Both the position numbers and the translations under genes were made by a program. A stretch of DNA of 64,000 nt from Campylobacterales bacterium (GTDB taxonomy: Bacteria > Campylobacterota > Campylobacteria > Campylobacterales > Sulfurimonadaceae). Of the stretch, positions 24,759 to 40,624 are shown piece after piece. The notes under the pieces were generated by a model. The model had not been told where the DNA came from. It worked only from the letters and a program-made list of their open reading frames with translations, and searched no databases. Where the stretch lies: the NCBI GenBank assembly GCA_016938735.1, contig JAFGUB010000015.1, forward strand, positions 4,806 through 68,805, written 5' to 3'. Each line of letters begins with the position of its first letter. Position 1 is the stretch's first letter.

Positions 24759-25279
24759 GTAACCATCTTTTAGGGGATGCCATCATCACCACACGCCTTG
24801 AGGCGGTGATCGACTGGGGACGTCAAAGCTCGCTTTGGCCGATGGTCTTTGACACGGCGTGCTGCGCCATCGAGTTTATGGCGGCGGCGGCGAGTCGCTA
24901 CGACGTTTCGCGTTTTGGGGCGGAGGTGCTGCGCTTCTCACCCCGCCAGGCCGATCTGCTGCTGGTTGCGGGCACCATCAGCTACAAGCAAGCCCCTATT
25001 TTGAAGATGATCTATGATCAGATGCCCCAGCCCAAATGGGTGATCGCTATGGGCGCGTGCGCTTCTAGCGGCGGCTTTTATGATAACTACACCACGCTTC
25101 AAGGCATTGACGAGATCGTCCCCGTGGATGTTTATATCGCAGGTTGTCCGCCGCGCCCCGAAGCGGTGCTCGATGCCATCGTGAAGATTCAGGAGAGTTT
25201 GTGGAAAGAGAGAGCGTGCGAAGAGCGCCACGCGGGGTTCAAGGGGCGGTTTGATGATGAGGCGCTAACTCAGCTCTAA
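24749..25279 (+). CDS. nuoB: NADH-quinone oxidoreductase subunit B
   Basis: 176 aa. Cluster N2 ligand blocks are [14 protein letters not shown] and GCPPRPE. It overlaps nuoA by 10 nt. Confidence 0.95.
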
Positions 25280-28200
25280 GGCGATCATCTCGGCCTGTTT
25301 GAGCACCGTTTCGGTCGCCAGTGCTTGCATGTCGGGCGGATAGCCGAACTGACGCAGCACCCTTTTGACGGCGATTTTGAGTTTTGCCCGTACGCTCTCT
25401 TTGATCGTCCAGTCGATGCTGGCATTTTCGCGCACCTTTTGGGTGAGCACCACGGCCAGCTCGCGCAGCACCTCTTTGCTCATCAGCTCTTTTGCACTCT
25501 CATTGTTTGCCACTGCCGTGTAAAAAGCGTACTCAAAATCCGTAAGGCCCAACTCACGCGGCTCTTGATCCATAGCCTGAATCTCTTTGCCGAGGTGGAT
25601 CAGCTCATCGATCACTTCCACCGCCGTGATGATTTTGTTGTGGTATCTTTTGATCGAATCTTCCAGCATCTGCATCAGCGATTTGCTTTGCACCAGATTG
25701 GTTTTTGATCTGGTTTTGATCTCGTCGCCCAGCAGTTTTTTGAGCACCTCAAGCGCGATATTTTTATGCTTCATATTTTTGACTTCCAGCAAAAACTCCT
25801 CTGAAAGTATCGAGATATCGGGCTTTTTGATCCCGCTTGCGTCAAAAATATCGATGACCTGCTCGGTGATGAGCGCTTTATCGATCACCTGACGAATCGT
25901 TGTCTCAATCTCTTCATCGCTTCGATCACCTGAGGGCTCAAACTTCACAAGACGCGCCTTGACGGCCTGAAAAAAGGCCACCTCGTCTTTGGCATCCATC
26001 GCCTGATCGTGCGGAATGGCGATGGCAAAGGCGCTTGAGAGCGCGTTTACCTCTTTGATGTACCTTTTTTTGCCCTCTTCGAGCCCTAAAATATGCTCTT
26101 CGGCTTCTAGTATCAGAGATAACTTTCCTCTTGTATCTTGCTCAAAGTAGTGCTCATACGCAAACCCGTGATACATCTGCGCAACGATTTCAAGTTTTTC
26201 CAGCATCAGCGCCACGGCCTTCTCCTGCGCCAGTGCGGGATCACCCCTGCCGCCGCTGTCGCTGTAAAACGAGAGCGCCGTTTTAAGATCGCTTGCAATG
26301 CCCAGATAGTCCACCACCAGCCCGCCCGGCTTGTCGCCATGCACCCGATTGACCCGCGCGATGGCCTGCATGAGGTTGTGCCCGCGCATGGGCTTGTCGA
26401 TGTAGAGCGTGTGCATTGAGGGCGCGTCAAAGCCCGTGAGCCACATATCGCGCACGATCACAAGGCGCAGCGGGTCATGATCGTCTTTCATGCGGCTCGC
26501 CAGGGCGCGTCTTTGCTCTTTGGTGGTGTGGTGTTTGGCCAGCGCCGCACCATCGGCACTGCTTGAGGTCATGATCACCTTGATGACCCCCTGACTCAAA
26601 TCATCGCTATGCCACGCAGGGCGCAGCGCGACAATCTCATCATACAGCGCAACGGCGATGCGGCGGCTCATGGAGACGATCATCCCCTTGCCCGCAAAGA
26701 CCTCCTGACGCAGTTCAAAGTGCGCGACGATATCGGCGGCGACCTCCTTGATGCGGTTGGCACTCCGATGAGGGCTTCTAGGCGCGTCCATTTCGCTTTA
26801 GCCTTCTGGCTCTCGTCTAGCTCCGATAGCTCCTCATCAAGCGCATGTACCAGCTCCTTGCCTTCCGCACTGAGGTTGATCTTTGCCAATCGGCTCTCGT
26901 AGTAGATCTTGACCGTTGCGCCGTCTTCGACCGCTTGGGCGATGTCGTAGATGTCCACATAATCCCCAAAGACCGCAGGCGTGTTGACGTCGCTGCTCTC
27001 AATCGGCGTGCCCGTAAACCCCAGATAGGTAGCATTGGGCAGGGCGTCGCGCAGATATTTGGCAAACCCGTAGGTGATCTCGCCCGTGTTTTTGTCTATT
27101 TTGGCGCGAAATCCGTACTGCGTGCGGTGGGCTTCATCGGCGATCACCACGATGTTGCGCCGATTTGAGAGCCGCTCATAGACGTTGCCCTCTTCAGGGG
27201 CGAACTTTTGAATGGTAGTGAAGATTACGCCGCCGCTTGCGACGCCCAGCTTCTCTTTGAGTTCGCTTCGCGTCTCGATCTGCACGGGTTCTTGTCTGAG
27301 CAGATTGGCGCAGCTTGCGAAGGTCTCAAAAAGCTGATCGTCGAGATCGTTTCTGTCGGTGATGACCAGCACGGTGGGGTTATCCAGCGCCAGAACGATT
27401 TTGCCCGTATAAAAGAGCATCGAAAGCGATTTGCCGCTCCCTTGCGTGTGCCATACGACCCCGCCTTTTTGATCTCCGCCTTCGCCGGCGGCTTTGAGCG
27501 TTCTCTCTACCGCTTTGTTGACGGCGTAGTATTGGTGATAGGCGGCGAGTTTTTTGACCGTCTCGATGGTGACGATGCCGTTTACATCCTCTTTTTTTGA
27601 TTGCTCAAAGACGATAAAACTACGCACCAGATCGAGCAGCACATGGGGCTGGAGCATCCCATTGATCAGGGTCTCTAGCTGCGGCGTCAGTCTGGAAACT
27701 TCGCTCACGCCGTCGCTGCTCTTCCACGCCATGTAGCGGCTAAGCCCCGCGCTGATTGTTCCCGCTTTGGCCTCGCAGCCGTCGCTGATGACACAAAAAG
27801 CGTTGTAGGTAAAGAGTGAGGGAATGAGCGATTTGTAGGTGCCGATCTGCTGGTGCGCGGAGGCGATGGTGGCGTTTTCGCCGGCGGCGTTTTTGAGCTC
27901 CATCACCACCAGCGGCAGACCGTTGACAAAAAGGATGATGTCGGGGCGTTTTTGATGGCCGTTTTCAATCATCGTGAATTGATTGACAACGACAAAATCA
28001 TTGCTATTCACATCGTCAAAATCTACCAGATGCACGATCTCGCCGCGCGTGATCCCCTCGCGCTGCACATCGACCTTGACCCCCTCCACCAAGAGCTTGT
28101 GAAAGGTCTCGTTGTCGCGCAGCAGTTCGCTTGATTTGATGCGCTCAAGTTGCTTGATGGCATCTTGCAGAGCGCTTACATGTAAGGAGGGGTTGATTTT

Positions 28201-28344
28201 TTCCAACGCGCCTAGCAGCCTCTCTTTGAGCAGAACCTCTTCATAGTTTCGCTCAAGATCGGGAGCGTACATGTAAGCGTAACCAAGCTGCTCAAAAAGC
28301 TCGATTGCGTAGAGTTCTATCTCATTTTCGGTGATTTTAGTCAT
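25265..28344 (-). pseudogene. hsdR: Type I restriction enzyme R subunit, split by a frameshift near 26760-26770
   Basis: The N-terminal ORF (26680..28359; likely start MTKITENEIE at 28344) has the DEAH box IADEAHRTQYG. The C-terminal ORF (25265..26791) has helicase motif [10 protein letters not shown]. The frames join as ...TRLEALIG / [13 protein letters not shown] with a 1-nt offset. Confidence 0.85.
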
Positions 28345-29288
28345 TTGTTCACTTCCCAATATCCGGATTTCAGGCTCCCGACTCTCTTGATAGCGCCTTC
28401 GTCTTTGAGCTTTTTGATCACTTTTTTGACCCCTGACTCGCTCATGGAGAGTTTCCCCATGAGCTCATTGATGGTAATGCGGCTGTTGTCTTTCATCAGT
28501 GCCAAAACTTTTTGATCACTTTTATAGTTACTTTTCTGGTCACTTTTGAGCGTATTGGCGATAGACTCCAAAATCATCTCAAGCATAAACTCGATAAACG
28601 GCGTGCTCTCTCCAAGAGCCGTGGACTCTTCTATGGCTTTATAGTACGCTTCTTGATGCTCCCTTACGATGCTTTCGGTCGGTAAAAGTGCAAAAATCGG
28701 ATTGAAGCTATGTAAAATCACACTTTGCCAAAGTCGCCCGATTCGACCGTTGCCGTCACCAAACGGATGAATAAACTCAAACTCATAGTGAAAGATGCAC
28801 GATTTCAAAAGCATATGCTCATCACTCGCTTTGAGCCATGCAAAAAGATCATCCATCAAATCATTTATCCTATTTGGCTGCGGGGCAATATGCGCTCCGA
28901 CGGATACATTGACGCTTCTAAACGTTCCTGCCGTCGTGAGTATCTCGCCCATCAAGATTTTATGTGCAAGCAACAGATCATTTAAGTCATCATACCTATA
29001 CGCTTCGAGTTTATCATAGGCTTTTATTGCGCCGTTGACTTCGGCAAGCTCTTTGAGTGTTCCTAAAACTCTTTTGCCATCCAAAATAGCGGTAATTTTT
29101 TCCTCACCCAGAAAATTACCCTCTATCTCCAAAGTACCCGCTAATGTTTTGATGCGGTTCTTTTTTCGTAGCATCGGGCTTACTTTTGTAGCGCCGCCAA
29201 CTTGAAGCTTGGTAAGTTCTTCACTGATTTGAGTAGAGAGTTTTAATATTTTTGAGGTTATTTTGTAGGGTGGGGTGTAGTTATTCAT
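28341..29288 (-). CDS. Fic family protein with C-terminal winged-helix domain
   Basis: 315 aa with Fic motif HPFGDGNGRIGR. The C-terminal block NSRITINELMGKLSMSESGVKKVIKKLKDEG is MarR-like. Its stop overlaps the hsdR ATG (ATGA). Confidence 0.85.
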   Translation of the reverse strand: MNNYTPPYKITSKILKLSTQISEELTKLQVGGATKVSPMLRKKNRIKTLAGTLEIEGNFLGEEKITAILDGKRVLGTLKELAEVNGAIKAYDKLEAYRYDDLNDLLLAHKILMGEILTTAGTFRSVNVSVGAHIAPQPNRINDLMDDLFAWLKASDEHMLLKSCIFHYEFEFIHPFGDGNGRIGRLWQSVILHSFNPIFALLPTESIVREHQEAYYKAIEESTALGESTPFIEFMLEMILESIANTLKSDQKSNYKSDQKVLALMKDNSRITINELMGKLSMSESGVKKVIKKLKDEGAIKRVGSLKSGYWEVNK

Positions 29289-30163
29289 TTTAGCCTCCCC
29301 AAAACGTCCAAAGCTCCCATCTCAAAGCGTGAAAACGCAAACCACTTTTTACCCAAGTCTTTCAAGCTTGCTCCGATATGGTAAATCTCTTGTTGGTCTA
29401 TGATCAAAAACCTATCATGAGCTTTTTTAAACTCTATGAGTTCTAGGTTTTGGTATTGCGCGCAGTACTTATGATAGTCAAGACGGAGCTGTTTTGAGAT
29501 GGTTTGCGTGTAGATTTTTATCTTTACATGTAAGTATTTGCTAAAGAGGGTAAAAACGGTGTCGTCTATGTAGTTGTCGATGAGCACCACTTCGTTTTTG
29601 GCACCCCCTAACAGCTCATTGACAAAAGCATACGCATCGTAAATCTGCCCGTCGTAGAAGATTCCATGTTTTGGTCGTATTGAGCTGTTTTCAAGGCCAT
29701 TTGAGATGTTTGCTACTTGTGATTTGAGTAGCGATACATCATTTTCTAGCTCTTTAAACCGTTCATGAGTGATTTTTTCGGAGTTGATGACATAGCCGTT
29801 TTGTACATAACTTGCGAGTACTGATGTTGCCCATTTTCTAAACTTTGTGGCGGTTATGGAATTAACTCTATAGCCGATAGAGATAATCATATCGAGGTTG
29901 TAATGCTCCAAGTTTCGCTCAACCATCCTATTACCTTCATTTTGAACTGTCAAGAAAAACTTGATAGTTGCGTCTTTGTCTAACTCATTGTCTTTGTATA
30001 TACGATTGACATGAAGGCTAATGTTTTGTTTTGTCACACCAAACAACTCGCCAAGTTGTTTTTGCGTCAGCCAAATAGTATTGTGGTTCACCGAAACATT
30101 CAGCTCTTGCTCACCGTCATTGTATATGACTACATTATGGCTTGGTATGGTTAGCTCATTCAT
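29285..30163 (-). CDS. RhuM-family protein
   Basis: 292 aa. LTQKQLGELFGVTKQNISLHVNRIY...ISIGYRVNSITATKFRKWAT is the RhuM signature region. It overlaps the Fic gene by 4 nt. Confidence 0.85.
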   Translation of the reverse strand: MNELTIPSHNVVIYNDGEQELNVSVNHNTIWLTQKQLGELFGVTKQNISLHVNRIYKDNELDKDATIKFFLTVQNEGNRMVERNLEHYNLDMIISIGYRVNSITATKFRKWATSVLASYVQNGYVINSEKITHERFKELENDVSLLKSQVANISNGLENSSIRPKHGIFYDGQIYDAYAFVNELLGGAKNEVVLIDNYIDDTVFTLFSKYLHVKIKIYTQTISKQLRLDYHKYCAQYQNLELIEFKKAHDRFLIIDQQEIYHIGASLKDLGKKWFAFSRFEMGALDVLGRLK

Positions 30164-30205
30164 CGCTTGCCTTTGGTTTGGTCATTTTAGGCTACCTTGC
30201 TTTGC

Positions 30206-30237
30206 TTACATGTAACGAAAGAAAAGCTTACATGTAA
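30206..30237. repeat. Two TTACATGTAA copies 22 bp apart (CTTACATGTAAC ... CTTACATGTAAT)
   Basis: Exact 10-mers at 30206-30215 and 30228-30237. They lie in the gap between rhuM and the AT-rich block. Confidence 0.95.
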
Positions 30238-30268
30238 TGCGGGGTTTGAATGATTGGTGGTGGTCATA

Positions 30269-30802
30269 TTATTTCCTGACTCCGTTTTCCTTGTCATCAA
30301 ATAAGCTTCTTTGATGTTCTTCTACCCATTTTTGATATTTTCGTTTTTTTCCAGCTTCTCGAAGTTTCAGTTTCCCGAGCTCTAGTTCTTGTGTTCCAAA
30401 TACTTGTAGCAGTCTATAACTTCTACTTTTCTCATCGCCAAATTCATCAAAAGTAATTTTTATTTCGAGATGGCAATTTATCAATGAACCATTAGAAAAT
30501 TTATGCTTTCCTTCAATAACCTCTTGTTTGAATTTTGAATCCGCCATACTAAAATCAATTTTTTCATTTTTGTATCTACCTCTCCAGTTATATTTCCCCT
30601 CTTTCAAAACTGGTGAAATTATTTCTATCATGGCATCGTCATCTTCTGACATAGTTGTGTCATCATGCAAAATAAAGCTTTTAAAATCTTTTCTCTCAAC
30701 TATATATTCATCTGCATCATCCTCTAAACTTCTATACCCTATCTTTTCTACTTTTTCATAAGCATCAATTTTTTTGTAAAAGTTTGAAATATATTTTTGC
30801 AC
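30269..30802 (-). CDS. Hypothetical protein (177 aa), very low GC
   Basis: Clean ORF in the AT-rich block downstream of the RloC-like gene. Lys/Glu-rich. No family recognised. Confidence 0.5.
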   Translation of the reverse strand: MQKYISNFYKKIDAYEKVEKIGYRSLEDDADEYIVERKDFKSFILHDDTTMSEDDDAMIEIISPVLKEGKYNWRGRYKNEKIDFSMADSKFKQEVIEGKHKFSNGSLINCHLEIKITFDEFGDEKSRSYRLLQVFGTQELELGKLKLREAGKKRKYQKWVEEHQRSLFDDKENGVRK

Positions 30803-30835
30803 GAGTTTATCATTGAGCTTTTTCTCTATTTGTTC

Positions 30836-31192
30836 TTATAGCTCTAAAGTTTTTTGTTGATTGTCTAACTCTAAATTTTGAAGTGTTGCTTCTTTGATTT
30901 TTTTATCTAAGGCTTCTGCTTGAGTATTTCTAGTAGCATAGTGAGTGATAATATCATTCAAAGCAGGTGATAAATAATGCAATGTAGGCAATACAATAGC
31001 CAATATTTCAATTAATCCGCCCTCTTGATAAGCTTCCGTTTCGATTTTTAACTCACTGTCTAAAAGCTCACCTATCCTTTTGACTGCTTCAAGAAAATCT
31101 TTTTCAGCCTTATTTCTCACAAAAGCATTCATAGCATGTGAGTTATCTTTTAGGTAATAATGAAGTTCAAATTTTTGAGTTAAGTTATTCAT
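30836..31192 (-). CDS. Hypothetical helical protein (118 aa), very low GC
   Basis: The start MNNLTQ at 31192 overlaps the RloC-like stop by 8 nt (ATGAATAA). The C-terminus is predicted helical/coiled. No family recognised. Confidence 0.5.
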   Translation of the reverse strand: MNNLTQKFELHYYLKDNSHAMNAFVRNKAEKDFLEAVKRIGELLDSELKIETEAYQEGGLIEILAIVLPTLHYLSPALNDIITHYATRNTQAEALDKKIKEATLQNLELDNQQKTLEL

Positions 31193-33380
31193 TAATAACT
31201 CCAATTTCAATATTCATCATTTTATTAAAATGTTTGATATTGCCTGATTCTTCAAAAATTTGTTTAAATGCTTCTTTAAATAAACTTACATCTATTTCTT
31301 TAACATCTGATATATTTATTTGGTCAGAATGAGACTCTCTATCAATGTATCTTAAAAAAGCACCGTATTTTATAGAATCAAGTTTATTTACTGATTCTTT
31401 CATCTTTTCATTGTCAATAAATCCAAAAAAATTCTCAAGTATATTTCGCATTGCATTTGCCAAAATATTGTCATGAGCGTTTCCATTTTCATGGTCTTTG
31501 AGTATTTTCCAATAAGCCTGATAATCATTTTGTATTTCATCTTGTAGCATTTCTAAAATTAAAGAAGATTTATCATTGCCTCTAACTATTCTAAAAAGCT
31601 TTTTATCCTTTTTATTGTGTATCTTACAAAGCTCATGAAAAAAATACATGCTATGAGTTAGTACAAAAACTTGTAAATAATTTTGACTTTCAAAAAATTC
31701 TTTTTTTGTAAGTTGTGCAACATTAAAAATATAATTATGCGATAAGCTTGATATTGGATCATCTATTACAACAATTTTATTTTTAATCTCTTCTGTTTCG
31801 CTTTCTTTTCCTTTGCAAAGTTCCACAAAGTAAAGAAAGCTTATTATCATTTTTTCACCTTCGCTTAACGATTTAAATTCTGGTTTACTTTCATTCTCCC
31901 TTACAATTCTGTAAAACTTATCTTCAAAAGGCTTTATCTCAAAACCATGCAACCCAAGCAAGGCTAATTGATAGTTAATTAATTCTATAACTTTTTCAAT
32001 ATTGATTGTTTTATCTTGATTTTCTTTGATAACATCTCTTTGAGCTTTTATATCATCTTTGATTTTTTGAAGTGCTAAATTTACCTTTGCTTCTTCTTTT
32101 TCTAAATCTTTTAAATCTTTTTCATATGACGAAATATGTACATCGTACTCCCATCTCATTATTTCCCAAAATTCTTTCTTTATAATCTCTTTAACATTTT
32201 TTTTATTTTTTATTTTTTCATTATGCTGCGTCATTTCTTGATTGATTTTTTCTACAAGTTCATTAAAGTTTTTCAATGCTTGACTAGAACCTTGAAGAGT
32301 CACTTTATTGCTTGGAAGTTTTATTTTATTGTCGATTGCAGTTATATTTTGAGATAAAACTGTAAGCAGTTTTGTATGTAAGCTTTCAAGTTCTATTTTT
32401 ACAGCATTTACATAATCATTTACTAAAAATGAGTCTATAGATGGAATATTATTTTTGATTGTCTCATATTTAGATTTTATTCCTTTCAATAAATTAATCT
32501 TATCCTCGTAAGTTTTATCAAAGTAGTTTTTTATCTCATCAGCTAAATTTTTTGTAACAGTTTCTTGTTGACAAAATGGGCAACTTGTGGCTTCATTTAT
32601 CTCATCTGGTAAATAGCCTAGACCCAGTTTTACCCAATCAGAATTTTGAAATTTTTCTATTAAACTTGCAACTGTACTATCTTTATTTCCTACAATAACT
32701 TCATCAAAAATACTGTTGTTTTCAAGTTCAATTACGCCACTTAAAACAATTTTTTGGAGAGGGTCTAAACTAATAGCATCATCACCTTCAATTTTTGAAA
32801 TCTCTTTTTTTAAATCATCTGTTGTTTTTGTAGGTTTAGTCAATGGCTTTACTAATGATTTAATATGATTAAATAGTGCATCTTTACTGCCTTTAACACC
32901 TTCTAAACAATAATCTAAAATTCTATCTCCACCGCTAAAGGTTGTTTTTATATTCCATATTTTTTCAGTCGCTTCTGACAATTTCTTTTTTTTCTTGCCA
33001 TTAGCTCCGTTTATTTCGTCTAGTTCTATTTTTTTTGCTTTTTCTTGAGTTTCTAATTTGTCAATTTCAGCTTTTGCATTTTTTACATTTTCTTCTGCTG
33101 TAACATTTGGCTCTGATATTGTAAAAACACCTTTTAAATCTTCTTTTTCATAAAAGTTTTCATTAATAAATTCTTGATTGTACACCAGTATTTTTGCTGT
33201 TTCTCCACCAGAAATTGAACAATCATTAAATTTACTATTGTTTTTATTTTTTAAAAAGTTTGATAAAGTTGTTTTTCCTGTTCCGTTTAGTCCATAAACA
33301 AGGTTTATTTTTTTATCTGTATTGAGTGTTCTTTCGCTTCTATAACTAGCGACATTTTTTAGTTTTATTAAAGTAATCAT
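31185..33380 (-). CDS. RloC/PrrC-like ABC-type ATPase (AAA_13 architecture), putative anticodon nuclease
   Basis: 731 aa with Walker A GLNGTGKTT and a long Lys/Glu-rich coiled-coil insert carrying CPFCQQ (zinc-hook-like CxxC). ABC signature SLSEGEK, Walker B IVVIDDPISSLS and H-loop VLTHS follow. The C-terminal R-x3-E (RNILENF) plus ESHSD resemble the PrrC nuclease triad. The gene is embedded in an hsd locus. Confidence 0.7.
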   Translation of the reverse strand: MITLIKLKNVASYRSERTLNTDKKINLVYGLNGTGKTTLSNFLKNKNNSKFNDCSISGGETAKILVYNQEFINENFYEKEDLKGVFTISEPNVTAEENVKNAKAEIDKLETQEKAKKIELDEINGANGKKKKKLSEATEKIWNIKTTFSGGDRILDYCLEGVKGSKDALFNHIKSLVKPLTKPTKTTDDLKKEISKIEGDDAISLDPLQKIVLSGVIELENNSIFDEVIVGNKDSTVASLIEKFQNSDWVKLGLGYLPDEINEATSCPFCQQETVTKNLADEIKNYFDKTYEDKINLLKGIKSKYETIKNNIPSIDSFLVNDYVNAVKIELESLHTKLLTVLSQNITAIDNKIKLPSNKVTLQGSSQALKNFNELVEKINQEMTQHNEKIKNKKNVKEIIKKEFWEIMRWEYDVHISSYEKDLKDLEKEEAKVNLALQKIKDDIKAQRDVIKENQDKTINIEKVIELINYQLALLGLHGFEIKPFEDKFYRIVRENESKPEFKSLSEGEKMIISFLYFVELCKGKESETEEIKNKIVVIDDPISSLSHNYIFNVAQLTKKEFFESQNYLQVFVLTHSMYFFHELCKIHNKKDKKLFRIVRGNDKSSLILEMLQDEIQNDYQAYWKILKDHENGNAHDNILANAMRNILENFFGFIDNEKMKESVNKLDSIKYGAFLRYIDRESHSDQINISDVKEIDVSLFKEAFKQIFEESGNIKHFNKMMNIEIGVINE

Positions 33381-34552
33381 ATCTCCACCCTTGCTTCCCC
33401 ACTCAACAGCTTTGGCAAGAGTGTATCTCGCAAGTTTTCAAGGGTTTGGATTTGTTTCGTATTGCTTTCTATTTTTGTGAAATATGGTTTCATCTCTTCT
33501 TCAAATTCCTTTACTGTTTTTTCATTCGGTAGAGTGATATTGTGTTCTTGGAATGTCTTTGTAGTAATAGTATCAAAAACACTGCCGTATGCAGCGGCTT
33601 GGAGCTCTTCCACTGAGTGTGAAATCAAAAGATATGTGAAAAAATAGCAGTCCTTAAATTTCGGCAAAACACCATAATTTGACTGGCTAAACGCCATAGG
33701 CTCCGCGAGTAAGCAATATTTCCCCACTGTTCCTCTAGCACTAATCACTGTGGCATATTTTGGTAAAAGCTTTGCCGAACTTTTTTCTAATCCCGTCTGT
33801 GTAATTGTTTTTTCTGTTTTGTGAATAAAACCTTTGTGATGCGAAGATATATCTCCTCCTGCCAACCATCCAATGCTCCCATCCCAATATTCCGCAACCG
33901 TAGTTTTTGGTGTACCCCCACCAACAAGAATAATGCTATCAAAAAGGCTTTGATCCTCCCACTCCTCTTTTGCTTCTTCGATAAACCATTGTCTAAAAAG
34001 CGTTTGGGCGAGGGATTCTAGGGTGTGGTTTTGGCGATGGAGAAGGTCTATCTTATCATCGAGGCTACTTAATACTTCTGCTATTGCTTTTTGTTCTTCA
34101 AGAGGTGGAAGGGAAATATCAATTTCATCAAATGTTGTTCTTGTTATGGTGTCAAATACTCCACCGTGAGATATTTGTATTAATTGATTTACTGTATCTT
34201 TTAAAAGGTAAAAAATATAATCATTTGTAGATTCATTTTCTTTTGCTCTAACTCCGTAACAAGATTGATTAAAAGTCATAGGTTTATCAAGCATTGCTAA
34301 AGCTCCAACAGTTCCACGAGCTGAAATGATTATGTCATTTTCTTGAAGTAGTTTTGTACTACTGTTTTTAAGTCCTTCTTCTGTTATAGTTTTTTCAGTT
34401 TTTGAAACATATTTTTTGCCAGTGTTAAAATCTACAACTGAAAGCCAAGGGATATCTCCATTCCAATATTCAGAAATAGCAGTTTTAGGAGTTCCACCTC
34501 CAATAATTTCTATTACCTCCCCCAACTTACACTCTCTCCAACTACTCATCAC
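33377..34552 (-). CDS. hsdS: Type I restriction-modification specificity subunit
   Basis: 391 aa. It has two target-recognition halves, each with GGGTPKT...ISARGTVG blocks, separated by conserved helical spacers. Confidence 0.85.
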   Translation of the reverse strand: MMSSWRECKLGEVIEIIGGGTPKTAISEYWNGDIPWLSVVDFNTGKKYVSKTEKTITEEGLKNSSTKLLQENDIIISARGTVGALAMLDKPMTFNQSCYGVRAKENESTNDYIFYLLKDTVNQLIQISHGGVFDTITRTTFDEIDISLPPLEEQKAIAEVLSSLDDKIDLLHRQNHTLESLAQTLFRQWFIEEAKEEWEDQSLFDSIILVGGGTPKTTVAEYWDGSIGWLAGGDISSHHKGFIHKTEKTITQTGLEKSSAKLLPKYATVISARGTVGKYCLLAEPMAFSQSNYGVLPKFKDCYFFTYLLISHSVEELQAAAYGSVFDTITTKTFQEHNITLPNEKTVKEFEEEMKPYFTKIESNTKQIQTLENLRDTLLPKLLSGEARVEI

Positions 34553-35234
34553 TCACCGCCTTTCTCACCCGCTCCATCAGCCCGAAGCTCTGCTCTTCTA
34601 GTAGTGAAAATGCAAACCACTTTTTGCCAAGGTCTTTGAGGGTTGATTCGTCGATATAGTTGTCTATAAGAACGATTGAACTTTTGGCTTTTTTGACAAG
34701 CTCACTCACGAGTGCATACGCATCAAAAATCTGCCCGTCGAAAAAGACGCCCTGTTTGGGGGTGGTGGATCTATTTTCAAGTGCATTTAGCACCGATTCT
34801 AGCTTTTGATTGGTCTGTTTTTGGTCTAGTTCAAGTTTTTCTACTCTTTGAAAAAGTGAAGCGTTCTGGAGGAGGTACTTGCGCATCTTGACGAAACTGT
34901 TGATGATATTGATGCTGGTTTGGATTGCCGTATCGCTTCGCAAGACTGCCGAGAGCATAGATACGCCTTGTTCGGTGAAGACATAAGGCAAAGCTGACGA
35001 ATGCTTGAGAGGTTGCAACCGGTCGCAATTTGCGACCAGTTCATTTTTTTCACTTTCATTTAACTGAAATCTAAACTCCTCGGGGAATCTCTCAATATTT
35101 CTTTTGACCTGTTCACCAAGTCTTTTTGGCTCCACACCGTACAGCTCCGCCAAATCTCTATCGATCATTACTTGCACACCGCGAATCGTAAAGATTTTGT
35201 GTTCGATGTTTTGCTGTATGCTCATTTCACTCAT
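34542..35234 (-). CDS. ORF6N (KilA-N-like) domain protein with truncated RhuM-type C-terminal module
   Basis: From MSEMSIQQNIEHKIFTIRGVQVMIDRDLAELYGVEPKRLGEQVKRN (ORF6N signature). The C-terminus matches the RhuM paralog tail but carries an internal deletion. Confidence 0.7.
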   Translation of the reverse strand: MSEMSIQQNIEHKIFTIRGVQVMIDRDLAELYGVEPKRLGEQVKRNIERFPEEFRFQLNESEKNELVANCDRLQPLKHSSALPYVFTEQGVSMLSAVLRSDTAIQTSINIINSFVKMRKYLLQNASLFQRVEKLELDQKQTNQKLESVLNALENRSTTPKQGVFFDGQIFDAYALVSELVKKAKSSIVLIDNYIDESTLKDLGKKWFAFSLLEEQSFGLMERVRKAVSDE

Positions 35235-36306
35235 CACCCACCCCCTCAAAATCATCTTCTAATTCCGCTTCTATTTGTTCCATGCTAGGAAGTGAGGATT
35301 GATACTCTTTGGGCAAGATCTCCATGAGTTCATATTCACTGACGCCTAAAGGCTTGTTGACATCTTTGAGCGCATACTCTACCACTACATTGTTTTTTGA
35401 TTTACAGATAAGTATGCCTATGGTCGGGTTGTCATTTTGATCTTTTAGCTCACCGTCGATTGCGCTCGTATAAAAGCTCAATTTTCCGGCAAACTCAAGC
35501 TTAAACTCACTCACTTTTAGCTCTACCACTACATAACATTTGAGCTTGATGTGATAAAAAAGCAAATCGATCCTAAACTCATCACCGCCAACGACAAGCT
35601 TATATTGTCTGCCGACAAAGGCAAATCCACTTCCAAGCTCTAGTAAAAACTTTGTAATGTTCTCTGTCAAAGCGTTTTCCAGCTCTCTCTCTTGATAGCC
35701 TTGCGTGAGGGTCAAGAAATCAAAGTTATAGGGATCTTTTGTGATCTCTTTTGCCAAGTCCGATTGAAGCGGTGGAAGTGTAGCCTCAAAGTTTGTGATA
35801 GCTTTGCCCTCTCTGGCGTAAAGATTTGTCTCTATTTGATGAATGAGCACATTTCTGCTGATACCGTTTTTGATGGTGTTTTGCACATAATAGAGAGCTT
35901 CTTGGGTGCTTTTGCACTTTTGGATGATGGCGATATTGTGCCCCCAAGGGATTTGTAAAACTTGCGAAACAACTTGTTTCGTATTTGTAACTTCCATTTG
36001 CGAAACAACTTGTTTCCAAAATAGATACCACTTTCTGATCAACTCTAAATTTCTTTTTGAAAACCCTTTTATATCTGGAAACTCTGCACTTAAGTCCTTG
36101 CTTAGTTGTTGCAAAAATCCGCTTCCCCAAGTGCTACTTTTTTGCTTTTCTACTATTTTACTTCCAAGATTCCAATAAAACTCCAGTAAAGCGCTATTTA
36201 TCTGTATGGAGGCTTTTATTTGCGAGCTTTGAAACCTTTGTTTTATCTCATTTAGCCACTCTTTATATTCTGTATTCAAAGAATTTTGAAGTTGTGTATT
36301 ACTCAT
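35227..36306 (-). CDS. YhcG/DUF1016-family PD-(D/E)XK nuclease-like protein
   Basis: From MSNTQLQ at 36306. The C-terminal block FRIDLLFYHIKLKCYVVVELKV has the D...ExK pattern. Confidence 0.75.
   Translation of the reverse strand: MSNTQLQNSLNTEYKEWLNEIKQRFQSSQIKASIQINSALLEFYWNLGSKIVEKQKSSTWGSGFLQQLSKDLSAEFPDIKGFSKRNLELIRKWYLFWKQVVSQMEVTNTKQVVSQVLQIPWGHNIAIIQKCKSTQEALYYVQNTIKNGISRNVLIHQIETNLYAREGKAITNFEATLPPLQSDLAKEITKDPYNFDFLTLTQGYQERELENALTENITKFLLELGSGFAFVGRQYKLVVGGDEFRIDLLFYHIKLKCYVVVELKVSEFKLEFAGKLSFYTSAIDGELKDQNDNPTIGILICKSKNNVVVEYALKDVNKPLGVSEYELMEILPKEYQSSLPSMEQIEAELEDDFEGVGDE
35962..36016. repeat. In-frame 36-bp tandem duplication carrying two GAAACAA-C-TTGTTTC hairpin-capable units
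   Basis: TTGCGAAACAACTTGTTTC occurs at 35962-35980 and again at 35998-36016. In the protein it encodes QVVSQ...QVVSQ. Confidence 0.8.
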
Positions 36307-37300
36307 CACCCACCGCCTCAAGGAGTCTTTGAAACTCTTCTTTGTTGGGCAGTACGGTGAGATATTTGCTGGCAAATATTTGGTTGTTGTCTCGTGGAAG
36401 GGTCATCTCTACAAGGGCTTTACTTTTGTCTTTGCACAAGATAATGCCCACCGTCGGGGCTTCGTCCTCTTGTTTTTCGACGCGGTCAAAGTAGTTGACA
36501 TACATCATCATCTGCCCGATGTCTTGATGTTTGAGTTCACCGATTTTGAGGTCTATGAGGACAAAACAATGCAAAAGGCGATTGTAAAATACCAAATCCA
36601 CCGCAAAGTGCTTTTCATCGATAGTAAGGCGTTTTTGTCTGGCGACAAAAGTAAAGCCTTTGCCAAGCTCCAGCAAAAATGCCTCTAGCTTATCGATGAG
36701 CTTTTGTTCTAAGTCGCTCTCAGAGTAGCTTGATAGCACGGGAAGTCCCACAAATTCGAGTATGTACGGGTCTTTTATGAGGTCTTGCACGGTTTCGATG
36801 ATATGCCCTTTTTGCGAAAGCTCTTTGACTTTTGTTTTGTCGATACTCAGGCTTAGCCGCTCATACAGCCCTGTGTCAAACTGCCTTTTGAGCTCTTTGA
36901 GCGTCCAGCCATTTTGTGCAGATTCTACCTCATAAAAATTTCGCTCATCTTCGCCGGTTATGCGAGACAAAAAGATGTAGTGGGAGTAGCTGAGGCTAAA
37001 TTGGTGAGACGCCGTCTCACTTTTTGAATAAGCCAAATAAAACCGTCTCATATTTTTGAGGTTATCTATTGAAAATCCACTGCCAAACTCCCTTGTAAGC
37101 TCATGTGAGAGATTTTTGATCAGCCCTTTGCCATACTCCGCCCTAGCTTCTCCGCCCTGCTCCTCTTCAACAATGCGCCGTCCTATCTCCCAGTAGGTTT
37201 GGGTCATGGTGGTATTGATGGTTTGGTAGATGCTGTTTCTGGCTTTTTGGAGAAGCTCTTTGATATCCGATACAAAATGGGTGTTTGAAAGATTACTCAT
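36299..37300 (-). CDS. YhcG/DUF1016-family PD-(D/E)XK nuclease-like protein
   Basis: 333 aa with N-terminal [30 protein letters not shown]...[14 protein letters not shown] and C-terminal [26 protein letters not shown]. Confidence 0.8.
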
Positions 37301-38813
37301 CCCCCACCGCCAAATTCACCTTCGCCAAATTTGCCAAAATACGCTCATTGAGCGCTTGTTCTTCCCTCATCTGCTCTTGAAGCGTTACATGTAAAGACTC
37401 AAACCGCTCTTTGAAATCAAACTCATCTTCCACATCTTCAAGCCCCACGTAGCGCCCGGGCGTGAGTACATAGTTAAGCTCTCGCACCTCTTGAAGGCTT
37501 GCGCTTTTGCAAAAGCCTTTGATGTCCTCATAGCGCACACTTTTGACCTTCCACTCATGATAGGTCTGCGCGATTTTGTCGGTATCTTTGGGGCTTAGCT
37601 CTTTAGTGCGGCGGTTGATGAGATGGCCCAGATTGCGCGCATCGATGAAGAGTATATCTTGCGTGGTGCGTCCGCGTTTCATAAACCAGAGCGAAGCGGG
37701 AATCTGGGTGTTGAGAAAGAGCTTTGCGGGCAGGTTCACGATGCAGTCAACAAGATTGGCCTCAATCAGCGCCTTGCGGATCTCCCCTTCGCCGCTGGTG
37801 TTGCTCGTGAGGCTCCCTTTTGCCAGAACAAACCCCGCCGTGCCTGTGGGTGCGAGGTGATACAAAAAGTGCTGTATCCACGCATAGTTGGCGTTGCCCG
37901 CAGGCGGTGCGCCGTATTGCCATCGGCCATCACTGCGCAGCAGCTCGCCGCTCCAGTCAGAGACGTTAAAGGGCGGATTGGCGATGATGAAGTCCGCTTT
38001 GAGGTCTTTGTGGGCATCGCTTAAAAATGAGCCTTCGTTGTTCCATTTAACCTGGCTAGAGTCGATGCCGCGAATGGCAAGGTTCATGCGGGCCAGCCGC
38101 CATGTGGTCTGGTTGGACTCTTGGCCGTAGATGGAGATGTCGTTGATGCGCCCTTGATGCTCCAGCACAAACTTTTCGCTCTGCACAAACATCCCGCCGC
38201 TGCCGCAACAGGGGTCAAACACGCGCCCCTTGTAAGGTTCTAGCATCTTCACCAGCAGTTCTACAACGCTTTTGGGCGTGTAAAACTGACCGCCCTGTTT
38301 GCCCTCGGCCAGCGCAAATTCACCCAGAAAATACTCAAACACATGCCCCAGCACATCAGCGCTGCGCGCTTTGGCATCACCCAGCGCGATATTGCCGATC
38401 AGATCGATCAGCCCGCCAAGCGCCTTGGCATCAAGATTGTCGCGGGCGTAGACCTTGGGCAGCACCCCTTTGAGCGTCGCGTTTTCACGCTCGATGGCGT
38501 CCATCGCTTCATCAACGAGCTTGCCGATGTGGGGGAGCTTGGCGCTGCCTTGCAGGGTGCTCCAGCGCGCGTTTTGCGGCACAAAAAAGACGTTTTCGGC
38601 GGCGTATTCGTCTTTGTCTTCGGGGTCGGCACCCTGATCAATCTGTGAGCGCAGCGTTACATGTAAAGCTTCAAAACTATCAGAGATGTATTTAAGAAAA
38701 ACCAGCCCCAGCACGACATGCTTGTATTCGGCGGCGTCGATGTTTTTGCGCAGCTTGTCGGCGGCTTTCCAAAGGGCGGTTTCAAGGGATTCTAGCGAAG
38801 CGGATTTGGCCAT
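37293..38813 (-). CDS. hsdM: Type I restriction-modification methyltransferase subunit
   Basis: From [22 protein letters not shown] (ATG at 38813). SAM motif DPCCGSGGM and catalytic NPPFN are present. The track ORF extension to 39017 crosses the promoter repeat and the nuoC start and is rejected. Confidence 0.9.
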
Positions 38814-38886
38814 AAGAGATGTTTCCGTGTGTGTTTTTGAAGCATAGATTGTAGCCAAAAGTTGATCCCCACACCTTGAAATCCAT

Positions 38887-38944
38887 TCGTCGCGGCTTTT
38901 GGGTATGATAGTGGCAATTTTTACCGACAAAGAGACGACGTGCC
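38887..38944 (+). promoter_or_regulatory. Copy B of the nuoA promoter/leader module, placed in front of nuoC
   Basis: TCGTCGCGGCTTTTGGGTATGATA has 1 mismatch to copy A, with TATGAT at 38904-38909. AAAGAGACGACGTGCC is exact. The GTG at 38940 opens an 11-codon remnant, [11 protein letters not shown], whose TGA overlaps the nuoC ATG (ATGA). Confidence 0.45.
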
Positions 38945-38971
38945 CCAAAATCTCCCGATACGGATTGATGG

Positions 38972-39208
38972 ATGAGTGAAGTACCCTACAGCGATCTTTT
39001 TGCCCACGCACAGTCACTCAAAAGCGAAGGCTACACCCTCCTACTCGACATCGTAGGCATCGATTACCTCTACCTGCCGCGCAAAGAAGCCAAGCGTTTT
39101 GGGGTGATCTACCATCTGCGCCATGGGGATTTCGACCGTGTGGTTTCTTTACATGTAAGCGTGAACGAAGATGAGCCGATAAGTAGCCTGTCCCCTTTAT
39201 TTAGATAA
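38972..39208 (+). pseudogene. nuoC: nuoC 5' fragment, terminated by a TAA created inside a tandem duplication
   Basis: The 78 codons encode a NuoC-like N-terminus (LLLDIVGIDYL...YHL). The stop at 39206-39208 lies in the duplicated copy of GATAAGTAGCC... Confidence 0.75.
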
Positions 39209-39241
39209 GTAGCCTGTCCCCTTTATTTGTCCCCTTTATTT
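39178..39241 (+). repeat. Nested tandem duplication (25 nt + A + 25 nt + 13 nt) inside nuoC
   Basis: GATAAGTAGCCTGTCCCCTTTATTT occurs at 39178-39202 and 39204-39228, followed by GTCCCCTTTATTT at 39229-39241. The net insertion is 39 nt, which is in frame. Confidence 0.9.
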
Positions 39242-40624
39242 GAGAGTGCGGATTGGTTGGAGCGGGAGGTGTTTGATCAGTTTGGGCTGCGTTTTAGCGG
39301 CCATCCCAACCTCAAACGTGTGCTCAACCATGAGGAGTTTATCGGCCATCCGCTGCGCAAAGATTATGCCATTACCAAAGGCCAATACTGCACCCAGACT
39401 CAGGATTTGATGGATGAGATGGCGCCGCTGCTTACATGTAAGCATCTGGATATGGAGCGTGACAACCTTATGCTGCTCAACCTCGGCCCCTCACACCCCG
39501 CCAGCCACGGCACGCTGCGCACCCTTGTGGCGCTTGACGGCGAAGAGATCAAGGCGGGGGTGAGCGAGATCGGCTATCTGCACCGGGGCTTTGAGAAGTC
39601 GTGCGAAAACCACACCTATAACCAGATCGTCCCCTACACCGACCGGCTCAACTACTGCTCGGCGCTCATGAACAACATCGGTTTTTGCAAGGCGGTAGAG
39701 GAGATGATGGGCATCAAGCTGCCGGATCGTGGGATCTTTATCCGTGTGATCCTAAGTGAGCTTTCGCGCATTATCGACCACCTCGTCTGCCTCGCGGCGG
39801 GGCTGCTGGATATGGGGGCGCAGACCAACTACTGGTACCTCTTCAACCCGCGCGGGCTGGCCTATGACTTTCTCAGCCGCCTTACGGGGGCGCGGCTCAC
39901 CAACTCTTTTATGCGCATCGGCGGCATGGCGCACGATCTGCACGCGGGGTGGGAAGCGGAGCTAGAAAGCGTGCTGCGCTCGGTCGAGAGTGGCGTGGAT
40001 GAGAGCCTGCGCATGAGTGAGCACAACCGCATTTTTATCGACCGAACCCAAAATGTCTCGTGTGTGAGTGGGGAGCGGGCAGTGAACATGGGCTGGAGCG
40101 GCCCCAATCTACGTGCGTGCGGCGTCGCGTACGATCTACGTTTTGCCGCGCCTTATGACTACTACGACACCTTTGATTTTTCGATGGTCGTAGGCTCTTC
40201 GGGGGACACCTATGATCGGCTGATGGTGCGCTTTGAAGAGATCAAAGAGAGCCTCAGCATCATTCGTCAGGCCATAAAACGCATCCCTCAAGGAGCGGTC
40301 AGCGTTGCCGATCACGCCGTGACGCTGCCTAGCAAAAGCGCCGTTTATGGCACGATTGAAGGGGCGATGAATCAGTTTAAACTTATCTTCGAGGGGGTCA
40401 AAGTGCCCAAAGGAACCCACTACGGCGCCACCGAAGCGGCCAACGGCGAGCTGGGATTTACCATCATCAGTGATGGCAGCGGCACGCCCTACCGCGTGAA
40501 AGTCCGTGCGCCCAGTTTCATCCACATGGCAAGCTACCCCAAGATCATCGAAGGAAGCCAAATCGGCGATGCTATTTTGACACTTGGAAGCCTCAATATC
40601 ATTGCCGGGGAGATGGATCGATAA
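39227..40624 (+). CDS. nuoD: NuoC C-terminal part fused to NuoD (NuoCD), downstream of the duplication
   Basis: The 465-aa ORF uses TTG in the track. [18 protein letters not shown] is the NuoC core. After a linker, [14 protein letters not shown] onward is full-length NuoD. Confidence 0.85.

Follow-up and report, generated by a model that had tools for sequence, protein, structure and literature searches.

The stretch analysed here, called the window in the following, comprises 64,000 nucleotides (nt) from a Campylobacterales bacterium of the family Sulfurimonadaceae (GenBank assembly GCA_016938735.1, contig JAFGUB010000015.1, positions 4,806 to 68,805 of the forward strand) and carries a type I restriction-modification (R-M) operon on its minus strand. 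Between hsdS and hsdR of this operon lies a gene for a protein of 731 amino acids (aa) which, judged by its sequence, is an intact member of the RloC family and a candidate for a tRNA-cutting nuclease. It is very likely that this hsdS-coupled gene and an unrelated cargo gene of the PDC-S42 family next to it, which is broken by a nonsense codon, were recently imported as one block of low G+C content. An earlier, sequence-only reading had proposed an RloC/PrrC-type nuclease candidate together with two partner open reading frames (ORFs) that could not be assigned to any family, and had considered the three as a possible module within a very AT-rich imported block. The nuclease candidate, its position between hsdS and hsdR (now established by the ORF map and Pfam) and the import were borne out, whereas the two small ORFs turned out to be one gene of a catalogued family, whose shared frame had been overlooked, and the module was not supported.

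Membership of the 731-aa protein in the family is directly supported by profile searches. Pfam AAA_13 was matched over model positions 3-713 of 713 (E-value 1.2e-120; 404.8 bits with a cut-off of 36), with secondary matches to SMC_N, AAA_21 and AAA_23, and the PADLOC profile PDC-S06 was matched at 4.4e-241. The PADLOC model for PrrC gave a weaker match (2.1e-17), with a best-scoring stretch of only aa 469-720, and weak matches to the PADLOC models for LmuB and AriA were obtained as well. A database search yielded 581 relatives, and where JGI has assigned a name to them it is that of RloC, 'wobble nucleotide-excising tRNase'. A prophage protein annotated as 'translation-disabling ACNase RloC' aligned end to end with the 731-aa protein (E 9e-54), with CPYCQQ opposite CPFCQQ. 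Searches of the PDB with the protein and with a profile of 25 sequences returned nothing meaningful, and no solved structure of the family was detectable by sequence in this way.

RloC has been defined by its ABC motifs, an insert with coiled coil and CxxC, and a C-terminal Arg-x3-Glu-x36-52-His, often with a Ser before the His (PMC2610378). The ABC motifs, a coiled-coil insert with a central CxxC, for which zinc binding is predicted, and the match to AAA_13 over the full length are all found in the protein of the window. The motifs named in the sequence-only reading (GLNGTGKTT, CPFCQQ, SLSEGEK, IVVIDDPISS, VLTHS, RNILENF at aa 645-651 and ESHSD at aa 682-686) are present at the places where it had seen them, and their conservation was directly assessed in an alignment of 25 homologues with 45-89% identity to the 731-aa protein (invariant residues in Table 1). 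Around the D-loop, conservation extends to SLSH548, which is invariant or nearly so. R645-x3-E649 fits the R-x3-E of the RloC/PrrC triad (PMC2610378).

The predicted structure (AlphaFold, AF2; predicted local distance difference test, pLDDT, 81.8) agrees with this assignment. In it, the nucleotide-binding head is divided between aa 1-77 and 480-611 by an insert of ~385 aa (aa ~90-474). The insert is largely helical, with long helices on either side of the CxxC, which lies close to its middle, and the C-terminal domain (aa 613-722) is built of helices throughout. The top matches of the model in the PDB by Foldseek were Rad50, SMC heads, Lamassu LmuB, PARIS AriA and retron Ec83, and a Rad50/SMC-like fold is therefore predicted on the basis of the model. 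The C-terminal helical domain is a candidate for an anticodon nuclease of the HEPN type.

Several points weigh against this assignment. The spacing between E649 and H684 is 34 residues, just outside the published range for RloC of 36-52 (31 in PrrC) (PMC2610378); many other aligned homologues carry two more residues there. The position of the His is unmatched in the alignment with the prophage RloC protein, and in the model H684 lies in a loop of low confidence (pLDDT <50 at 682-691). The likeness to GkaRloC and EcoPrrC was judged from published descriptions and profiles. Finally, hsdR carries a frameshift, so control that depends on R-M may be lost in this genome. As an alternative, the protein might be an AAA_13 ATPase without tRNA-cutting activity, acting as a sensor of DNA ends with a non-catalytic C-terminus or on some other RNA. 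Such a role would agree with the breadth of AAA_13, of which assays have covered only GkaRloC and a few relatives, and with the low confidence of the modelled His loop. As R645, E649 and H684 do not vary among the homologues with 45-89% identity and the match to the PrrC profile spans the nuclease region, it is considered improbable.

Relatives of the RloC-like protein also occur in phage and prophage genomes. AAA_13 proteins with 24-32% identity are encoded by Enterobacter phage ENT4, Streptococcus Javan prophages and gut phages, and they form PHROG 2801 (7.5e-126).

The two small ORFs downstream of the RloC-like gene are, as far as can be read from their sequences, one gene interrupted by a nonsense codon, belonging to the PDC-S42/LAPAL family. 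The split is directly visible in the reading frame: translation of 31210-30266 in one frame gives '...KTLEL*EQIEKKLNDKLVQKYISNFY...', so that both ORFs are in frame with a single TAA between them. Both halves match one and the same 320-position PADLOC profile, PDC-S42, the N-terminal half at positions 2-123 (6.7e-29) and the C-terminal half at positions 148-319 (1.7e-57). In an alignment of 17 sequences, all 16 homologues are single proteins of 298-324 aa and carry E, Q or K in the column of the TAA, mostly E, which fits a change of GAA to TAA. Altogether 485 homologues of the small ORFs were found; nearly all of the best ones are single proteins of ~303-310 aa and up to 93% identical, and the best come from Arcobacter, Aliarcobacter, Sulfurimonas and Sulfurospirillum. 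An exhaustive search with the PDC-S42 profile gave 693 representative clusters, and of the best 150 the majority are ~300-350 aa long and match the greater part of the profile. P0003, a homologue that is intact, reached 70 bits against the NCBIfam LAPAL_fam cut-off of 60. For the C-terminal piece, translation could start in frame only at a GTG, before which no ribosome-binding site is evident, and the gene is therefore probably inactive, a pseudogene, in this genome.

As to what an intact PDC-S42 protein does, PDC-S42 and PDC-S06 are both among the untested 'phage defence candidates' derived by guilt-by-embedding (bioRxiv 10.1101/2024.01.29.577857), and literature searches on 'PDC-S42' and 'LAPAL motif' found no paper. 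The product of the split gene has an LSPAL motif at aa 74-78, within a conserved hydrophobic segment (aa ~60-82) that is borderline for a membrane helix (Kyte-Doolittle 1.0-1.8). The structure of PDC-S42 was predicted with mediocre confidence (pLDDT 64 overall, <40 at the N-terminal aa 44-115 and 70-85 for the larger part of the beta-rich C-terminal domain). With this model, Foldseek gave no match in the PDB below E 0.03; weak matches to OB-folds recurred (HIN-200, Stn1, LysRS N-domain), which may serve as a lead but not as a result. Among viral models, the matches were to uncharacterised phage proteins only, including a DUF6575 protein at 4.6e-8.

Whether the nuclease candidate and PDC-S42 belong together was assessed directly from their gene contexts. 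Besides the window, 36 loci with PDC-S42 were surveyed, with neighbours identified by tblastn and Pfam. Immediately upstream of PDC-S42 lies hsdS in 17 loci and an AAA_13 ATPase, of several subfamilies, in six (L002, L007, L011, L027, L028 and L035), so that 30 of the 36 have no AAA_13 gene there. The other upstream genes encode SMC_N (2), HerA/DUF87 (2), MmeI (2), an SF1 helicase (1) and Schlafen/AlbA_2 (1), and the remaining loci have unidentified (3) or housekeeping genes (2) in this place. On the 3' side, RhuM, ORF6N, KilA-N or Fic are found most often, and otherwise DUF6933+Abi_2+DUF4268, TIR, Schlafen, HNH, reverse transcriptase, DUF6088/AbiEi-like genes or hsdR. Conversely, six contexts were sampled independently for homologues of the 731-aa protein, and PDC-S42 is missing from every one. 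In Aliarcobacter butzleri (88% identity), Francisella philomiragia (81%) and a metagenome-assembled genome (MAG) of Sulfurimonas (83%), Mrr/nSTAND3 or other genes come after MmeI and AAA_13. The order in a Sulfurimonadaceae MAG (89%) is MmeI remnant, AAA_13 and RhuM, and two more distant homologues (46-47%) show AAA_13 with Fic or AAA_13 alone. The pair is colinear in close relatives only, namely L007 (88% nucleotide identity) and L011 (82.8% over 2,972 nt), and equally close relatives of either gene are found apart from the other.

From these data, a three-gene module is not supported, and the co-occurrence of PDC-S42 with AAA_13 is facultative. The association suggested by the sequence-only reading thus holds for the six loci in which the small-ORF gene lies beside an AAA_13 gene; mostly the two are apart. 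That reading had taken the ATPase-nuclease and the downstream ORFs for one abortive-infection system, in which the small proteins would act as regulator or antitoxin. The overlap it had noticed between the stop codon of the 731-aa gene and the ATG of the next ORF is real (ATGAATAA, 8 nt), and the colinear pair in L007 and L011 as well as AAA_13 genes of other subfamilies ahead of PDC-S42 in L002, L027, L028 and L035 would be in line with such a unit. However, the two small ORFs make up a single gene, which is disrupted in the window whereas the nuclease gene has stayed intact; a cell deprived of an antitoxin should die or come under selection to lose the toxin as well. In addition to the many PDC-S42 loci that lack AAA_13, homologues of the nuclease are followed by Mrr/nSTAND3, RhuM, a 191-aa ORF and then DUF2971, Fic, or nothing, and an internal silencer is documented for RloC (PMC3458546). 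One common module is therefore highly improbable.

A looser connection, in which PDC-S42 would be a facultative accessory to whichever NTPase is encoded upstream (AAA_13, SMC_N, HerA or SF1 helicase) and not a stand-alone gene, is also unlikely. In the 19 loci without hsdS upstream, the gene in this position is usually an NTPase (six AAA_13, two SMC_N, two HerA and one SF1 helicase), and start and stop codons overlap in the window and in L011. On the other hand, the 17 loci with hsdS directly upstream have no extra NTPase, no other class of embedded defence genes is as common as the NTPases, and the PADLOC label is PDC-S and not PDC-M, taken to mean a single-gene candidate. PDC-S42 is thus independent cargo that normally stands just after hsdS in such operons.

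Some further observations were made on the surroundings of both genes. In most of the informative loci among L001-L040, a RhuM, ORF6N, KilA-N or Fic gene comes after PDC-S42, which is thereby linked more tightly to these downstream genes than to any upstream gene. Truncated 5' fragments of Fic directly after PDC-S42 in L006, L007, L019 and L027 suggest repeated recombination at this junction. In the pathogens Campylobacter jejuni, Campylobacter sp. and Helicobacter spp. (L015-L018), homologues of PDC-S42 with 38-48% identity occupy the space from hsdS to hsdR in type I loci. They may match one of the genes known historically as 'rlo' (restriction-linked ORF); the copy of C. jejuni (L015) has stop codons. 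Close homologues of the RloC-like gene stand directly after an R-M gene of the MmeI type (type IIL) in L041, L043, L046 and L011, and after a remnant of it in L044. The MmeI stop overlaps the RloC-like gene by 4 nt in L041, L046 and L011 and by 1 nt in L043. These genes belong to a recurring scaffold in which MmeI and AAA_13 are followed by variable cargo and then by a DEAD/ResIII helicase and T5orf172; the variable slot holds Mrr/nSTAND3, DUF2971+Fic, or PDC-S42+RhuM.

The base composition bears on the origin of the two genes. The G+C content is 0.266 in the 731-aa gene and 0.311 in the small ORFs, 0.37-0.44 in hsdS, RhuM, Fic, ORF6N and DUF1016, and 0.54 in hsdR, hsdM and both flanks; the line 32161-32220, singled out before for its low content, has exactly nine G+C. 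The RloC-like gene and PDC-S42 share 83-91% DNA identity with low-GC loci of Campylobacterota (Sulfurimonas, Sulfurovum and Arcobacter). For hsdM and hsdR, proteins are 70-85% identical to those of low-GC relatives but the DNA only 66-74%. The alignment with L011 is colinear across both genes and ends exactly at the start codon of the RloC-like gene. This composition and identity, as read from the sequence, indicate that both genes probably came as one recent low-GC import of 3.1 kb from a Sulfurimonas/Sulfurovum/Arcobacter-like donor. Because donor-like composition and 83-91% DNA identity are kept while hsdM and hsdR have the G+C content of the host, the cargo slot appears to have been swapped recently, by recombination at gene boundaries. 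A drop in G+C caused by chimeric assembly was considered and rejected, since the AT-rich genes keep the order of related R-M operons and hsd genes with graded G+C lie on both sides of the block. In Francisella philomiragia, a gammaproteobacterium, the 81%-identical RloC-like protein is encoded on an island beside a phage-type integrase (L043), which indicates recent gene transfer across phyla.

The host locus is a ten-gene co-directional type I R-M operon with common embedded cargo (two DUF1016, ORF6N, RhuM and Fic). In the ORF map it appears as a minus-strand array from 39017 to 25265 in the order hsdM, two DUF1016/YhcG genes, ORF6N, hsdS, the 731-aa ORF, the 124-aa ORF, the 177-aa ORF, RhuM, Fic with winged helix-turn-helix (HTH), and hsdR, the latter as two overlapping ORFs. 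The stop codon of hsdS and the start of the 731-aa gene overlap by ATGA. A scan of 28000-39200 for promoters and terminators gave matches at chance level only. The true start of hsdM is probably an ATG near 38813, as homologues align from residue ~68 onwards.

Table 1. Position of the genes and motifs in the window and the evidence for each.
Feature	Position	Strand	Evidence
PDC-S42/LAPAL gene, ~307 codons, split into ORFs of 118 aa and 177 aa	30269-31192	-	shared frame, one PADLOC profile, single-protein homologues
N-terminal ORF, 124 aa (118 aa from ATG at 31192)	31210-30836	-	ORF map
C-terminal ORF, 177 aa	30802-30269	-	ORF map
In-frame TAA nonsense codon splitting the PDC-S42 gene	30836-30838	-	homologues have E, Q or K at this place
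RloC-family protein, 731 aa, intact	31185-33380	-	Pfam AAA_13, PADLOC PDC-S06, motifs, fold
Walker A/P-loop GLNGTGKTT, aa 30-38	33267-33293	-	G30, L31, N32, G35, K36, T38 invariant
CPFCQQ, aa 267-272, candidate zinc hook	32565-32582	-	C267, P268, F269, C270, Q271 invariant
ABC signature SLSEGEK, aa 504-510	31851-31871	-	L505 to K510 invariant
Walker B and D-loop IVVIDDPISS, aa 536-545	31746-31775	-	I536, V538, I539, D540, D541, P542, S544, S545 invariant
H-loop/switch VLTHS, aa 573-577	31650-31664	-	T575, H576 invariant
R645-N-I-L-E649, candidate residues 1 and 2 of nuclease triad	31434-31448	-	R645, N646, I647, E649 invariant
E682-S683-H684, candidate catalytic His after Ser	31329-31337	-	E682, H684 invariant; S683 at least 90% conserved
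hsdM	37293-39017	-	Pfam N6_Mtase 6e-109 and HsdM_N
Two DUF1016/YhcG PD-(D/E)xK genes, upstream cargo	37300-36299, 36375-35227	-	PADLOC PDC-S02
ORF6N gene, upstream cargo, 5' of hsdS	35255-34542	-	PADLOC PDC-S05
Upstream cargo block, interval hsdM-hsdS	34542-37300	-	Pfam and PADLOC
hsdS	33377-34552	-	Pfam Methylase_S 5e-55, two target-recognition domains
RhuM-family gene, downstream cargo	29285-30163	-	Pfam Virulence_RhuM 2e-24; PADLOC PDC-S05 3e-99
Fic and winged-HTH gene (SoFic-like), downstream cargo	28341-29288	-	Pfam Fic 5e-22, HTH_24; PADLOC SoFic 1e-41
hsdR	25265-28359	-	split into ORFs of 559 aa and 508 aa by 1-nt frameshift near 26755-26765

In this operon hsdM and hsdS are intact and hsdR is frameshifted, so that an intact type I set is not present. 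The frameshift (ATCGG-AGTGCC) falls outside any homopolymer run, and hsdR is contiguous in the relatives L009 and L032. In the source record, the protein accessions pass directly from NuoB (MBN2895322) to Fic (MBN2895323), and none appears to be listed for hsdR. Because of the frameshift, restriction has probably been lost, and the R-M arm is presumed to be reduced in this genome to methylation alone by a methyltransferase that is probably functional.

The upstream cargo and the flanks of the operon showed additional peculiarities. The two genes for DUF1016_N and YhcG PD-(D/E)xK nucleases (PDC-S02; 35227-37300) are in tandem and divergent in sequence, and the relative L009 has one only. The ORF6N protein (237 aa; 34542-35255, minus strand) passes from '...LIDNYIDES' directly to 'LKDLGKKWFAF...'. 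Relative to the RhuM protein of the window and to the 306-position profile PDC-S05, it appears to have lost ~65-70 internal residues with the reading frame preserved. The whole 13.7-kb R-M island (25265-39017) is flanked by nuoB (stop 25279) and nuoC (start 38972) and lies antisense to the nuo operon; the 3' end of nuoB and the stop of hsdR overlap by 15 nt. A respiratory operon is an unusual insertion site for an R-M island. Within nuoC (39170-39245, plus strand), a 26-nt unit, GATAAGTAGCCTGTCCCCTTTATTTA, is duplicated in tandem and followed by a third, partial copy, GTCCCCTTTATTT. This duplication introduces a stop and splits nuoC/nuoCD into ORFs of 78 aa (38972-39208) and 465 aa (39227-40624). 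Either complex I is truly disrupted in this way, or the duplication is an artefact of assembly.

The TAA in PDC-S42, the frameshift in hsdR and the duplication in nuoC could all be errors of assembly or consensus, and PDC-S42 would then really be intact. The source is a contig of a MAG, and three lesions within 14 kb are in favour of this. However, the TAA is a base substitution and no homopolymer indel, the frameshift in hsdR is likewise outside a homopolymer run, and the NCBI annotation, too, calls the 177-aa piece separately. Errors of this kind are hence thought to be a rather unlikely cause, and the preferred reading remains a nonsense-broken PDC-S42 beside an intact RloC-family gene. It is also conceivable, if doubtful, that PDC-S42/LAPAL truly serves R-M-linked defence or regulation and is able to couple functionally with upstream ABC/ASCE NTPases such as the RloC-like protein, featuring the hydrophobic LSPAL segment and a beta-rich, possibly OB-like C-terminus, and that its loss by nonsense mutation together with the frameshift of hsdR reflects selection against a toxic import in a new high-GC host.

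For RloC, excision of the wobble nucleotide from tRNA and an ATPase switch that responds to zinc and DNA have been described (PMC2610378, PMC3458546), and the protein carries its own internal silencer (PMC3458546). By analogy, tRNA cleavage, its trigger and abortive infection may be ascribed to the 731-aa protein as well. Following the model of GkaRloC, a dimer of the RloC-like protein would be kept silent via zinc-hook joints and the ATPase switch (PMC2610378, PMC3458546). ATP and DNA ends, or some perturbation of restriction during infection, might then free the C-terminal nuclease, which would excise the wobble nucleotide at anticodon loops of tRNAs, and the resulting stop of translation would abort the infection. 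The translational coupling to hsdS in the window, and to MmeI in relatives, suggests co-expression with the specificity or methylase subunit of the R-M system, possibly with a cross-talk like that of PrrC.

RloC-like ABC-HEPN genes in R-M operons beside RhuM and Fic/Doc genes were noted already in 2013 (PMC3710099), and both gene families are in PADLOC, so the locus is of little value as a discovery. It is, however, a clean example of modular cargo exchange in the slot between hsdS and hsdR, and PDC-S42, with its 693 representative clusters and nearly always embedded in R-M operons in the surveyed loci, is a reasonable target for phage-defence screening.

Compared with known systems, the PDC-S42 gene corresponds to NCBIfam NF053583, 'LAPAL motif-containing putative phage structural protein', the two ORFs together spanning the whole profile. 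Its site just after hsdS is typical of the family; the copy in the window is interrupted by the stop and is therefore not covered end to end by a single protein. The label 'phage structural' has no support in these R-M contexts.

The closest counterpart of the 731-aa protein is RloC of Geobacillus kaustophilus and of Campylobacter jejuni (rloC/rloE/rloG; Pfam AAA_13). Common to both are the ABC-ATPase motifs and the coiled-coil insert with its CxxC at ~36% of the length (C267 of 731 versus C288/C291 of 804), and the candidate C-terminal R-x3-E...S-H arrangement resembles the RloC triad apart from its spacing. Shared with the original C. jejuni rlo genes are the origin in Campylobacterota, the insertion in a type I R-M locus and the character of low-GC, laterally transferred cargo. 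The differences lie in the length, 804 aa versus 731 aa, and in the spacing from E to H discussed above. In addition, RloC was described as rarely linked to R-M, whereas in the subfamily found here coupling to the R-M gene that lies upstream (hsdS or MmeI) appears to be regular.

PrrC of Escherichia coli (EcoPrrC with EcoprrI) lies between hsdM and hsdS of a type Ic locus and has an R-M protein as its silencer. It shares with the 731-aa protein the embedding in a type I hsd locus, the ABC NTPase and a C-terminal nuclease domain with an Arg-Glu-His triad (a candidate one in the 731-aa protein), but it is a compact protein of ~400 aa. Because PrrC has no coiled-coil/zinc-hook insert, which here makes up ~385 of 731 aa, the protein of the window can be classed by its architecture as no PrrC. 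The linkage to a type I R-M locus, obligate in PrrC, is found in the window too, yet homologues of the 731-aa protein also stand beside MmeI or alone. Lamassu LmuB, PARIS AriA and Septu/retron PtuA are relatives at the level of the fold (Foldseek E 2e-4 to 4e-4). These ATPases pair with a separate effector protein, whereas in the 731-aa protein the putative effector domain is fused within the same chain.

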